Assembly: GCA_965208835.1 (NCBI GenBank)
Contig: OZ242358.1
Span: forward strand, 1,952,001 to 2,016,000
Reading direction: 5' to 3'
DNA length: 64,000 nt
From: Candidatus Latescibacterota bacterium
Lineage (GTDB): Bacteria > Latescibacterota > UBA2968 > GCA-2709665
Shown: positions 37,180-41,075 of the stretch, piece after piece
How positions within the stretch are numbered: the stretch's first letter is position 1
How the letters are laid out: each line of letters begins with the position of its first letter
The notes under the pieces: model-generated
Databases searched by the model: none
What the model was told of the DNA's origin: nothing
The model's input: the letters and a program-made list of their open reading frames with translations, nothing else
Program-made: the position numbers and the translations under genes

Positions 37180-37305
37180 CCGACTGAACGATCGTCCATG
37201 GACGGTTAACCGCGAGGTTCAGGGATTGCGCTGTGTTGCGGGATTCCGGCAACTGAAACAACTTCAGGGTTGAATCGCGGCTGGCTTATTCCTATTTTTT
37301 CAAAG

Positions 37306-38499
37306 ATGAAATTACTGAAACGGCTAAGAGTTCGGCTCGCGTTCGTGGTCTGGGCGTCAGTGGCCGTGGCGGCCTGCGGGAAGACGCCACCCACCGTGGA
37401 CGATGATCTCTACGAAGCGTATCCCGGGTTGCCCTATGGAATCATGATCACCATCGCCGGCACCGGAGATCCGGGGAGGAGTGCCTCCGGATCGGGTCCT
37501 CTCGACTCGGAATTATATTTCCCTCAGGATATGGCCGTCGGCCCCGACGGCCGGACGTACATTCTGGACTGGAACAACAATCGGGTTGTCGTGATCGACA
37601 ACGGAACCTTGCGCCCTCTGATCGGCAACGGCGAACCGGGCGCGGCGCCTGCGGGTCCCGCGCTCGAGGTAGGCGTTGATCATCCGGCTAATATTTCGTT
37701 CGATCCGCAGGGGCGGTTGATCCTGTCGGCCTGGCAGAACTCAAGGATCATGCGATACGACGCTACCTCGCGCCGCGTCGAACCCATCGCCGGCCGGGGC
37801 GATCGCGGGTTCAGGGGCGATGGCGGCCCCGCTCTGGATGCCTCGCTGAATCTGCCGAGCTCCACGGCCTTCGATCCGTCCGGCCGCATGTATATCTCCG
37901 ATCAGGGAAACCTCCGCATTCGAAGGGTTGATCTGAACGGTATCATCTCTACCGTTGCGGGCACCGGACGGGAGGGGTTTTCCGGGGACGGCGGTCCTGC
38001 GACCCTGGCCGATCTGTATGCGCCCACGGGTGACGCCGCGCAGCCTGCCGGCCGGATCACGATGGATGGCCGGGGCAACCTTTATATCGCCGATACGTTC
38101 AACAACCGGATACGCATGGTGGATACCAGCGGCAGGATCAGCACCGTGGCCGGCGGCGGCAGTATTGGCGCGACCGCCGGTACGTACTCCGGAGACGGCG
38201 GGCCGGCAACCCAGGCCAGCCTTTCGCGCCCGAGCGACGTGGCCGTCGACGCGGAGGGCAACCTGTATATTGCTGACACAGGCAACCATTGTATCCGGAA
38301 GGTGGATACGGAGGGGACAATCACCACGCTTGCCGGACGGTGCGGCGAGCCGGGTTTCAAGGGCGATAGCGACCATCCCCGATGGGGAAAACTCAGGAGT
38401 CCGTTCGGAGTCGCGCTCGACCGGGAAGAAAATCTGTACATCGCGGATACGTTCAATCATCGGATCCGCCTGGTGTACAAGCATATCGCCGAACGATGA
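37306..38499 (+). CDS. NHL-repeat (teneurin-like beta-propeller) lipoprotein
   Basis: Lipobox VAAC; repeated GFSGDGGPA..A.L..P..A.D..GNLYIADT.N.RIR units. Confidence 0.88.
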   Translation: MKLLKRLRVRLAFVVWASVAVAACGKTPPTVDDDLYEAYPGLPYGIMITIAGTGDPGRSASGSGPLDSELYFPQDMAVGPDGRTYILDWNNNRVVVIDNGTLRPLIGNGEPGAAPAGPALEVGVDHPANISFDPQGRLILSAWQNSRIMRYDATSRRVEPIAGRGDRGFRGDGGPALDASLNLPSSTAFDPSGRMYISDQGNLRIRRVDLNGIISTVAGTGREGFSGDGGPATLADLYAPTGDAAQPAGRITMDGRGNLYIADTFNNRIRMVDTSGRISTVAGGGSIGATAGTYSGDGGPATQASLSRPSDVAVDAEGNLYIADTGNHCIRKVDTEGTITTLAGRCGEPGFKGDSDHPRWGKLRSPFGVALDREENLYIADTFNHRIRLVYKHIAER

Positions 38500-38564: not shown

Positions 38565-39068
38565 ATGTGTGGAACGAATCTGCTGCGTATCGCCGGCATC
38601 GTGCTGGGTGCGGGTCTGATCTGTTGTTTTGCCGACGTCGCGGCAGCCGGAGGCGATAAACCGGGTACCGTGCCGCGTGTGCAGGTTGTCACGCTCGAAG
38701 GTGATACGCTGAATCTTGCCGACGTCTGCGAAGGCAAGCCATCCTTCGTCTATTTGTGGGCAACCTGGTGCAAGTCCTGCAAGAAGGACCTGAAAAACGT
38801 CTTCAAGTTGAGGAAGAAATTCGGCGACAGGGTCCAGGTCTTCGGCATTGCCTGGAAGAACAGCGCGGAGGAAATTCAGACCTTCTTCGCGGACAGGAAG
38901 GAAACGCTGCACAGCTACATTGATTCGGATGGCCGGGTGTTCGAAGCCTTCGAGACGCGTTTGACGCCCACGGTTGTCATTGTCAATGCGCGGGGCGAGG
39001 TCCTTTTTTCCGGTTACCGTTCTTTTAGGACATACAGGAAAATTCTGGAAAAGTCATTGAAGGGTTAG
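38565..39068 (+). CDS. TlpA family thiol-disulfide oxidoreductase
   Basis: Signal peptide, WATWCKSC, TPTVVIVN..G. Confidence 0.88.
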   Translation: MCGTNLLRIAGIVLGAGLICCFADVAAAGGDKPGTVPRVQVVTLEGDTLNLADVCEGKPSFVYLWATWCKSCKKDLKNVFKLRKKFGDRVQVFGIAWKNSAEEIQTFFADRKETLHSYIDSDGRVFEAFETRLTPTVVIVNARGEVLFSGYRSFRTYRKILEKSLKG

Positions 39069-39285
39069 CCTCGATTCGCAATTGTTCGGGGACCTGAATG
39101 TCGAATGTATACAGAAGAACAAAGGCGAATTGACGTCAGGGGTCCCGGATACTTCAGGTCACTGGACGTGAGGGGAATTTTCATCCATTTGAACGACCTC
39201 AATACCCCGTTTTCACACGGCACCTTCTGTGCCTTTTGCGCTTTTTGTGGTAAATTGACTGTTGTCTTTTTTCGAACTGAGGTTA
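39066..39285. mobile_element. MITE-like repeat family D, copy 1
   Basis: TAGCCTCGATTCG ... CGAACTGAGGTTA termini; internal blocks shared with the 44656 and 54468 copies. Confidence 0.65.
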
Positions 39286-39318
39286 GCTGCAAATAACGTC
39301 GCTGGAGGATCCACGACC

Positions 39319-40293
39319 ATGAGACGCGCGTTACCGGTTTTCCCGCTGATTCTGTTCGCCCAACTGATTCTCACGGACCAGCTCGTACTGGCGCAGCCGG
39401 GCGTGAGTTGACGCCGCCCCGTGCTCCCGGGCGGGAGAATGCTGCAGGGCAGTCTGATTTCGAAGGACCTTCTGGTTCTGAGCATGAATTACGAATACGA
39501 GTATCTGGGCGATGCGAAGTTCGGTACCGGACCGATACCCAACATCAACCAGGAAGTGACCAGTATGTCAACGGTATCCGTATTCGCAAGTTACGGGGTT
39601 ACGGAATGGTTCGGCGCCGCCGTGGTGCTTCCGTTTCGTTCCATAACCAACGATAAAATTCTCCTTCCAGGTCAGTACGACAACCAGTATCTGGGCGGCG
39701 AGTACGTCCGGCACGCCGCCGGTCTCGGCGACGTCGTTCTGATGTTGAACTTTGCGCCGCCTCTGCCGGAAGCGTTGCCCGGGCTTCTTTTTTCGGCAGG
39801 CGTCAAGCTCGCGAACGGGTCGACCCACGCGGTCGATGAGTACGGCGAGCGGTTCGCCGATCTGCTGCAGGTGGGTTCCGGCAGCATGGACCCCATTCTC
39901 TCTGTAAGTCTTTCACGCTCGTTCGACAATCTGTTCTTCTCCGGTATGCTATTCACCCGCATTATTTCCCGCGAGAATGTATACGGATACAAATATGGAA
40001 ACGAGTTTCAAGGCATCTTTTCCATGGATTATCACCACGGGGACAAGCTCATTGCGGGTCTCGGCCTGAACCACGTTCACACGGCCCGCGATTTTTTCCA
40101 ATATGGAAAGATCGCCCGAAAACGTGGGGGCACCTGGGTTTATCTTGCGCCGAAGCTGGGCGTACGGGCGATGGAGAATCTGAGCCTGGAAGCGAGATTG
40201 CCACTTCCTGTTTACCAGAATGTGAATGAGAGCCAGCTGACTTCCAATTATCAGCTCCACGTTGGCGCCACGTATCACTTTTTCGCCCGGTAG
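39319..40293 (+). CDS. Outer-membrane beta-barrel ('transporter'/MetA-like) protein with in-frame TGA at codon 31; candidate selenoprotein
   Basis: RBS GGAGG, ATG 39319, signal-peptide-like N-terminus, TGA 39409-39411, then the frame continues into the listed 290-aa ORF (GLGDV, GVKLANG, LQVGSGSMD, YKYGNE, terminal YHF). Confidence 0.7.
39412..39450 (+). promoter_or_regulatory. Candidate bacterial SECIS hairpin
   Basis: CTCCC-GGGC-GGGAG apical stem-loop at 39424-39437 plus lower pairing GCCC/GGGC, directly 3' of the TGA. Confidence 0.5.
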
Positions 40294-40328
40294 CAGCGGG
40301 AACGGCTGCACCGCGTGATATCGTCAAA

Positions 40329-41075
40329 TTGCGGGAGGCCGAGTTGCCGCTGAATGAAACCGAGAAGATGTGGGCCGAGCTGGCGCCGTTTTACGACGTC
40401 ATGTATCAGTGGAAGGACTATCGGGCCGAGTCGGAGCGGGTTCATCAGTTGATCCGTTCACATTGTGTGTCGCACGGTAACACACTGCTGGACGTCGCGT
40501 GCGGGACCGGGGGGCATACCCGATATCTGCGGGACCACTACGATATCACCGGCATGGATCTGAATCGGGAAATGTTGAAGGTAGCCCGCAGAAAAATACC
40601 CGGTGTCACATTTCTGTCCCGGGACATGACGTCCTTCAATCTCAAGCGTCGCTTTGACGCGGTCATCTGTCTGTTCAGTTCAATCGCCTACGTCAGGACG
40701 TACCGGAACCTGAAACGGACGATCGCCTGTTTTGCAAGACATCTGAAACCCGGCGGCACTCTGATTATCGAGCCCTTTTTCACGAAAGAGACGTTCGTTG
40801 CAGGATCGATTCACGGAGGCACGCTTGAAGCCGACGGCGTAAAAATCTCCAGGCACAACGTGAGTCGCCGCCGCGGAAACCTTGCCGTCCTCGATTTTCA
40901 TATTCTCCTCTCTACGAAAAAAGGCACCCGGTATTTCCGCGACACCCACGAGATGGCCTTGTTCGACAGGGAGAGATTTCTCGAGATTATGGCGCATGCG
41001 GGTCTGCGGCCGAGGTACAAGGAGAGCGGTCTGATGCCGGGCCGCGGACTCTACGTCTCGCTGAAGGCCGTTTGA
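40329..41075 (+). CDS. Class I SAM-dependent methyltransferase (TylM1-like)
   Basis: YD..Y..KDY..E, LLDVACGTG, FDAVICLFSSIAY, HLKPGG..IIEP. Start uncertain. Confidence 0.85.
   Translation: MREAELPLNETEKMWAELAPFYDVMYQWKDYRAESERVHQLIRSHCVSHGNTLLDVACGTGGHTRYLRDHYDITGMDLNREMLKVARRKIPGVTFLSRDMTSFNLKRRFDAVICLFSSIAYVRTYRNLKRTIACFARHLKPGGTLIIEPFFTKETFVAGSIHGGTLEADGVKISRHNVSRRRGNLAVLDFHILLSTKKGTRYFRDTHEMALFDRERFLEIMAHAGLRPRYKESGLMPGRGLYVSLKAV

Follow-up and report, generated by a model that had tools for sequence, protein, structure and literature searches.

The stretch analysed here (the window) comprises 64,000 nucleotides (nt) of contig OZ242358.1 from a Candidatus Latescibacterota bacterium (NCBI GenBank assembly GCA_965208835.1, positions 1,952,001 to 2,016,000 of the forward strand). 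Unless stated otherwise, coordinates are window positions. A gene at 39319-40293 is predicted to encode an exported outer-membrane beta-barrel with a single selenocysteine (Sec, U), specified by an in-frame UGA near the start of the mature chain and followed by a putative Sec insertion sequence (SECIS). The gene was translated with TGA read as U, and its features are as follows:

39304-39308, + strand: Shine-Dalgarno-like GGAGG, by direct reading of the sequence, 10 nt 5' of ATG 39319
39319-40293, + strand: complete predicted selenoprotein gene, 324 residues including Sec31, then TAG (40291-40293)
39319-39393, + strand: predicted signal peptide, residues 1-25, with basic residues at its beginning, then a hydrophobic core, and a cleavage site of A-x-A-like type
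39394-39468, + strand: mature N-terminal segment QPGVS-U-RRPVLPGGRMLQGSLISKD, ahead of the first barrel strand
39409-39411, + strand: UGA predicted to be read as Sec, codon 31; the column is TGA in 79/79 distinct homologous sequences
39412-39437, + strand: putative SECIS element, with a 12-nt spacer (39412-39423), the stem CTCCC (39424-39428) / GGGAG (39433-39437) and the loop GGGC (39429-39432)

Gene architecture

The reading frame consists of MRRALPVFPLILFAQLILTDQLVLAQPGVS, TGA (codon 31) and RRPVLPGG..., and stays open until the TAG at 40291-40293. The predicted protein starts with a signal peptide and continues with an N-terminal Sec segment, after which comes an outer-membrane barrel of 12 strands. 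Cleavage by signal peptidase I is predicted at VLA/Q, which would make Sec residue 6 of the mature chain; the equivalent sites of relatives are AHA/Q, AYA/Q and SFA/Q, and the sequence of the signal peptide is free to vary among homologs while its character is kept in all. The best-conserved block of the protein is U-RRP-x-LP-x-G, with U6, R7, R8, P9, L11, P12 and G14 invariant among 47 representatives.

Under translation table 11, the open reading frame (ORF) starts at GTG 39421 and encodes 290 amino acids (aa) without a signal peptide. Public gene calls also cut the family at the UGA, with products of 283-290 aa (e.g. P0002-P0012, of which P0009 is an NCBI 'hypothetical protein'). A first-pass annotation, made from the letters of the window, had remarked on the missing signal peptide of the ORF listed from 39421, and had noted the GGAGG, the ATG at 39319, the in-frame TGA followed by RRPVLPGG, and a stem-loop CTCCC-GGGC-GGGAG with a G at the start of its loop, 12 nt after the TGA. 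All these elements were present at those positions. Its proposal of a candidate selenoprotein was likewise supported, each of the tests it suggested that was run having favoured Sec.

Conservation of the in-frame TGA

Below, P0001 is the protein of the window gene and G000 its source genome. A six-frame search found the gene in 17 of 101 related genomes, and two paralogs, about 50% identical to each other, were present in all 15 genomes of the genus. Every match from the 17 genomes that covered the N-terminus (33/33) carried exactly one TGA, at the same column. When the scan was extended to species-representative genomes, a stop stood at the Sec column in 43/43 loci, assigned by their record titles to Latescibacterota (some binned as Gemmatimonadota), KSB1, Calditrichaceae and Marinimicrobia/Fidelibacterota/Neomarinimicrobiota. 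Metagenomes contributed 61 loci, many of them on ocean contigs; six were without the N-terminal region, and the remaining 55/55 carried the stop.

After pooling, the codon column was TGA in 79/79 distinct sequences and TAA or TAG in none, including the AT-rich marine lineages (Marinimicrobia), and TGA was also found at the equivalent place in 3/3 fusion genes of Acidobacteria (see below). The conserved TGA that the first-pass annotation had predicted for orthologs was therefore observed throughout these sequences. Protein identity was 37-99% across phyla, and the local consensus around Sec was A-Q-G-G-[VI]-S-U-R-R-P-x-L-P-x-G.

A sequencing error, which the same annotation had wished to see excluded by read mapping, was addressed with independent assemblies: contigs from three other studies showed several base differences nearby and none in the TGA or the hairpin, and an error is therefore excluded. 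TGA was the commonest stop of the long open frames of G000 (TGA 2090, TAG 983, TAA 813; 3886 in total), and the genome therefore uses the standard genetic code.

The predicted SECIS hairpin

The significance of the pattern in a single sequence was assessed by a chance scan of G000, in which a site counted if the frame was open both before and after a TGA codon and a hairpin came next, with a stem of 5 bp or more, G at loop position 1 or 2 and the loop beginning 18-23 nt after the T of TGA. The scan returned 350 sites, of which 40 had a GG loop at 19-22 and three looked coding by eye (the barrel gene, its paralog and selD). The combination of TGA and hairpin in one sequence is not significant by chance; given 350 comparable sites in the genome, the case rests on the comparison with other sequences.

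That comparison recovered the conserved hairpin anticipated by the first-pass annotation, at a fixed offset and with a covarying middle pair. The stem started 12 nt after the UGA and closed a 4-nt loop in 79/79 sequences, with 5 pairs in 76 and 4 pairs in 3. Loop types were GGGC (35), AGGU (29), GGUC (9) and others (6). The middle pair, which joins two third-codon positions, was C-G in 46 sequences, U-A in 20, A-U in 5, G-C in 2 and U.G in 6. The Ser or Arg after G-G was nearly always encoded by an AGN codon, as the stem requires, the few exceptions being Asn, Thr and Gly. On a 44-sequence alignment, 93.2% of cells were paired (87.8 +/- 0.9% in shuffles) and the covariation score was 0.187 (0.092 +/- 0.014 in shuffles), values that 0/500 shuffles reached in either case. 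Slid controls, with the partners moved by 1-3 columns, paired in 26-69% of cells. The same helix was predicted by RNAalifold.

The bacterial SECIS (bSECIS) model sets limits of 16-37 nt for the UGA-loop spacing, 4-16 bp for the stem, 3-9 nt for the loop and <= -7.5 kcal/mol for the folding energy (PMC13188914). The window hairpin falls within them, with a 17-nt spacing, a 5-bp stem, a 4-nt loop starting with GG and -8.3 kcal/mol when folded alone. Among the homologs, <= -7.5 kcal/mol was reached by the hairpin alone in 56/79 sequences and by a 48-nt stretch in 77/79.

In the minimal SECIS of fdhF, the apical loop is GGUC, with G23/U24, and a spacer of 11 nt is required. Compared with in-ORF bacterial elements of this kind (E. 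coli fdhF type; Zhang and Gladyshev model), the barrel hairpin likewise lies directly 3' of the UGA, whereas it stands at the short end of the range, has no evident bulged U, and overlaps the L-P-G-G-S/R codons with its stem, so that peptide and RNA constraints are entangled.

Other selenoprotein genes of G000 provided a comparison within the genome. The SECIS of selD had a 7-bp stem and a GGUC loop; counted from the U of UGA, this loop started at nt 21, as it does in the barrel gene, and the two loops are of matching type. A gene for an FdhA-like molybdopterin oxidoreductase (G000:C1:2632877-2634328, locus L329), which scored below the TIGR01553 cut-off, also had an in-frame TGA (CSRA-U-HAPTV); its SECIS had 7 bp and a GGUCU loop starting at nt 22.

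Selenocysteine machinery

The selA, selB, selC and selD genes, whose presence the first-pass annotation had wished to see confirmed, were all found in G000, with scores above the curated cut-offs: selA 563.6 bits, selB 361.2 bits, selD 358.6 bits and tRNA-Sec (selC) 73.4 bits. The selD gene carried an in-frame TGA of its own (RTCG-U-AAK). SelB scored above the cut-off in 93/101 related genomes. Among those that carried the TGA barrel the count was 16/17, the exception (G018) being 80% complete, and for distant TGA-barrel genomes it was 5/5.

Relatives without selenocysteine

A profile search of 1.84 billion representatives gave 2040 relatives at E <= 0.001. The closest sense-codon homologs, P0013 and P0017, were full-length, continuous with a signal peptide, and had Ser at the Sec column. 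They formed one clade nested inside the Sec clade (quick tree, Shimodaira-Hasegawa-like approximate likelihood ratio support only), which suggests a single secondary loss of Sec. Most of the 2040 relatives were full-length proteins in which the signal peptide was followed at once by a Cys motif (AQ-x-CCSGG-x-P, CSCGG or SCGxxxCP); in distant relatives these motifs lay 2-5 residues off the Sec column, at which a few relatives had Glu or Pro. The remark of the first-pass annotation, that barrels of this family often carry Cys just after the signal peptide, thus holds for the wider superfamily (CC, CSC and CxxxxC-type motifs) but not for the closest sense-codon homologs, and the distant motifs do not align with Sec.

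Cys-type cousins in Bacteroidota were collected by a pattern search, in which 355/377 matched stretches encoded a relative. The neighbourhoods of the barrels with AQ-x-CCSGG-x-P (L249-L328) had a DUF3179 gene next downstream in 7/8 sampled loci, and genes with HMA domains, HMBD/CusB-like genes and TonB-receptor genes were found nearby.

Fold of the mature protein

A structure model of the precursor (AlphaFold2, 16 alignment rows) had predicted local distance difference test (pLDDT) values <50 for residues 1-39, and was replaced by an AlphaFold2 model of the mature chain. The alignment for the latter consisted of 47 read-through representatives at <=90% identity, and the model had a mean pLDDT of 85.7 and a predicted template modelling score of 0.82. 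With this model as query, the best structural match was Pput2725 (4rl8_C; Z 25.7, root-mean-square deviation 2.3 A, 255/268 residues), followed by FapF (Z 23.4) and autotransporter barrels (Z 18-20); an earlier Foldseek search had returned the same families. A 12-stranded outer-membrane barrel of the COG4313/FapF fold is strongly supported as the predicted structure of the mature protein.

The window protein matched 0 Pfam families at E <= 1, and stayed below the gathering score of PF13557. The PF13557 threshold (22 bits) was passed by the homologs P0014 (25.9 bits), P0016 (28.3 bits), P0028 and P0030. Likewise, P0001 matched 0 NCBIfam families at E <= 1 (release 20.0), the NF041027, NF049945 and other selenoprotein models included.

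All 47 representatives (47/47) contained one Sec and no cysteine; any Se-S chemistry must therefore be intermolecular. Model residues 1-20 had pLDDT values of 58-65, and autotransporter barrels aligned from model residue 1. Residues 13-26 aligned with the lumen-occluding N-terminal residues of Pput2725, and the Sec-bearing residues 1-12 would thus be an extension of the plug. In Pput2725 itself, the first ~14 residues are described as occluding the lumen from the periplasmic side (PMC4493636).

Pput2725 (Pseudomonas putida F1, PDB 4RL8; COG4313/PF13557) and the window barrel have in common 12 strands and an N-terminal segment ahead of strand 1. They differ in the 12 extra N-terminal residues of the window barrel, which bear Sec and the invariant U-RRP-x-LP-x-G, and in its partners, a thioredoxin-fold protein and a propeller lipoprotein. 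The COG4313 family is associated with the uptake of hydrophobic compounds, and none of its members was reported as a selenoprotein in the full-text literature search.

Gene neighbourhood

The barrel gene is the last of a local trio, the first two genes of which are as follows:

37270-38499, + strand: NHL-repeat beta-propeller with a lipoprotein signal, VAAC/G (Pfam NHL, TEN_NHL); first gene of the trio, 5' of the redoxin gene
38565-39068, + strand: TlpA/AhpC-TSA/Redoxin-type thiol:disulfide oxidoreductase with WCKSC (PF00578, 3.7e-13; PF08534, 2.1e-11), upstream of the barrel gene

The ORF of the redoxin is listed from 38382, and the Met of its signal peptide is at 38565. A CxxC redoxin with a signal peptide stood immediately 5' of the barrel at 26/43 genome loci: those of all genus orthologs, the sister genus, Calditrichaceae and KSB1, most Marinimicrobia-type loci, and L107. 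The upstream redoxin is likely to be the redox partner of the barrel.

The two proteins are joined in some lineages. A C-terminal thioredoxin domain was found in 8/8 homologs of ~360-410 aa, plus P0026. The fusion genes of Acidobacteria (L169-L171, on contigs of metagenome-assembled genomes) encode a signal peptide and AQVK-U-APSTLPVGS, and have the hairpin G-CUUCC-GGUC-GGAAG-C after a 12-nt spacer. In a barrel with an even number of strands both termini are periplasmic, and the Acidobacteria fusion therefore puts the CxxC domain next to the Sec segment. A gene for a cytochrome c protein followed the barrel-thioredoxin fusion in 2/3 Acidobacteria loci.

Outside the ortholog clade, 8/9 sampled loci had a gene for a ~350-aa beta-propeller lipoprotein (weak Lactonase/SGL matches) downstream of the barrel, often with overlapping stop and start codons; the propeller copies of L098 and L082 were 41% identical (E 1e-98). 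A Se-S tether between the barrel and the propeller lipoprotein was considered and dropped, because the latter has no conserved Cys besides that of the lipobox.

The second barrel paralog of G000 (locus L061, G000:C1:2535338-2536270, - strand, ~50% identical) had the same TGA column and hairpin, and no adjoining redoxin. Orthologs of this paralog in the genus (e.g. L082) had the beta-propeller lipoprotein gene next downstream. FG-GAP/UnbV_ASPIC (CRTAC1-like) proteins recurred beside the redoxin-barrel-propeller cluster (L081, L098, L103, L104, L105, L107, L148 and L162), and most of them carried C-terminal sorting domains of the type IX secretion system.

Probable decoding of the UGA and proposed function

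From the sequence comparisons, the gene is very probably a genuine selenoprotein gene that defines a family not yet catalogued: SelB and Sec-tRNA(Sec) would decode the UGA at 39409-39411 during synthesis of an exported COG4313-like barrel. Both factors would be recruited by a minimal in-ORF SECIS (12-nt spacer, 5-bp stem, GGGC tetraloop), and the 324-residue precursor would be exported via its signal peptide, with Sec as the only chalcogen nucleophile of the mature chain. The decoding mechanism is ordinary; the location and the lone-Sec architecture are unusual.

For the function of Sec, the first-pass annotation had supposed a metal-binding or a redox role, and either may apply. On balance, the following arrangement is slightly favoured: the N-terminal Sec segment would be located in the periplasmic opening of the lumen or at its edge, comparable to the N-terminus that occludes Pput2725, and would exchange electrons with the upstream CxxC redoxin, cycling between selenol and selenenylsulfide via an intermolecular selenenylsulfide. 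The channel tip would then bear a reducible selenol, by which a thiophilic or oxidised substrate would be captured, reduced or gated, and the beta-propeller lipoprotein of the neighbouring gene would be the third component.

A further proposal is more tentative and is regarded as possible rather than probable: that the lone selenol in the lumen plug, recycled by the dedicated redoxin, chemically captures, reduces or gates passing cargo, making the barrel a selenium-dependent outer-membrane device. If true, a catalytic residue in the plug would be described for the first time in an outer-membrane channel, and outer-membrane transport or detoxification would run on selenium redox chemistry in abundant ocean Marinimicrobia and in sponge-associated Latescibacterota. 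With one selenol at the channel tip, beside a dedicated periplasmic redoxin, the barrel allows the idea of redox or chalcogen chemistry at the outer membrane to be tested.

Several observations weigh against Sec decoding or against the redox arrangement. The 5-bp stem is short, and four of its pairs are determined by the first two positions of the L-P-G-G-S/R codons, which leaves one pair free to covary. In contrast to most accepted selenoprotein families, this one includes no member with Cys at the exact position of Sec, a criterion that is customary and not defining. A database fragment (P0041, 172 aa) reads GVS-W-RRPILPGGS, with Trp at the position of Sec; in the closest relative for which DNA is available (59% identity) the codon is TGA, and a TGA called under genetic code 4, as opposed to a true TGG, is a plausible, unproven explanation of this Trp. 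The placement of the Sec segment depends on the stretch of the model with pLDDT 58-65. Finally, the redoxin was not adjacent at 17/43 loci (14 of the second paralog, and L096, L104 and L105).

Alternative explanations

The main functional rival, which is considered unlikely, accepts the same Sec decoding and has the selenol coordinate a thiophilic metal or metalloid (Cu(I), Hg, Zn, As or selenium species) without redox cycling. From a binding site at the N-terminal tip the ion would be passed through the channel or out of it, and the thioredoxin-fold partner would merely keep the selenol reduced, or would add second or third ligands. TlpA-type proteins keep copper-binding cysteines reduced, which fits such a role, as do the CC, CSC and CxxxxC motifs directly after the signal peptide in the wider superfamily and the DUF3179 (7/8), HMA, HMBD/CusB-like and TonB-receptor genes that adjoin the CC-type barrels of Bacteroidota. 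However, a single Sec without Cys (47/47) supplies one soft ligand, while metal sites usually have at least two, and metal-resistance genes were found in none of the sampled Sec-type loci. Moreover, a TlpA-like redoxin gene was found by tblastn beside 0/80 Cys-type barrel loci; the redoxin link therefore does not extend to the Cys-type cousins, and the partners of the two subfamilies differ.

Read-through of the UGA as an ordinary residue (Trp, Cys or Arg), with the hairpin stimulating near-cognate decoding or pausing translation, is very unlikely. The small size of the hairpin and the W of P0041 would agree with it, but the geometry of the hairpin is that of the selD and FdhA-like SECIS elements of the same genome, and selB was present in 21/22 TGA-barrel genomes tested, the exception being the genome that is 80% complete. 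Ordinary read-through also leads one to expect frequent replacement by a sense codon, which was seen only in one small Ser lineage.

Still less credible is a true stop, with a 30-residue leader peptide and a barrel translated separately from GTG 39421 or ATG 39439. Gene callers annotate the family in this way (P0002-P0012, P0009), and a GGGAG stands just before ATG 39439. Yet this GGGAG ends 1 nt before the ATG, too close for a ribosome-binding site, and a barrel that lacks a signal peptide has no route to the outer membrane. The downstream start is not conserved (MLQ, VLPGG, LQH and MEG were called), and many relatives are without Met there. The two frames are always joined, with TAA or TAG in 0/79 sequences even in AT-rich Marinimicrobia, and the Ser homologs are continuous with their signal peptide.

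A pseudogene, an assembly error or a code with sense TGA can practically be dismissed, since the TGA is retained in the contigs of three other studies despite base differences nearby, the protein is conserved between phyla (37-99% identity) and present as two paralogs in each genome, and TGA ends 2090/3886 long open frames of G000.

Relation to known selenoproteins

A 2026 review tabulates 119 prokaryotic selenoprotein families (PMC13188914, Table 1), and no family resembling the window barrel was found among these 119. The parts of the GOS paper, the deep-Sep paper and the Haft preprint that entered the comparison describe no such family; supplementary tables (e.g. 'hypothetical protein GOS_A') lay outside it. 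The KSB1 paper notes selABD only. Full-text literature searches combining selenocysteine with COG4313, PF13557 and MetA-pathway terms, together with broader searches, returned no relevant paper.

The first-pass annotation had called an exported beta-barrel selenoprotein unusual. Such proteins are indeed rare, but there are precedents: the GSU2204-family MtrB/PioB-type barrels (NF041027) and the FCYXU TonB-dependent receptor (NF049945) are, like the window protein, exported beta-barrels with a computationally predicted Sec (PMC13188914). Their folds and families are unrelated to that of the window barrel and the barrels are much larger; the TonB receptor has a CxxU motif, whereas the window barrel has a lone Sec and no Cys. 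With the periplasmic thioredoxin-fold selenoproteins (UGC-type TlpA, DsbA-like, Prx-like) and with DUF3179, itself a listed selenoprotein family (PMC13188914), the barrel shares the use of Sec by exported proteins that handle redox reactions or metals. Unlike in the thioredoxin-fold selenoproteins, the partner here keeps an ordinary CxxC (WCKSC) and Sec is on the membrane barrel, not on a soluble enzyme.

With gene calls truncated at the UGA, this widespread family is routinely mis-annotated and is invisible as an exported protein. Selenoprotein finders based on Sec/Cys pairs would also overlook it, since Cys occupies the Sec column in none of the homologs, and reliance on such pairs may explain its absence from the 119-family catalogue. 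As the family occurs in several phyla, including Marinimicrobia (SAR406), and on many ocean contigs, it would raise estimates of the marine demand for selenium.

Other features of the locus

A scan of 38900-40500 for promoters and terminators found one promoter-like and one terminator-like site, which is the level of shuffled sequence. Directly 3' of the barrel gene is a gene for a SAM-dependent methyltransferase (40329-41075). Genomes of the genus keep it in this place, at 72-96% identity, but tblastn recovered no copy next to the barrel in other phyla. A dispersed intergenic repeat of ~100 nt (39182-39285) lies 3' of the redoxin gene and 5' of the barrel's ribosome-binding site; it is a sequence which had 14 blastn matches in G000, its own locus included, and at which contigs from several runs pile up.

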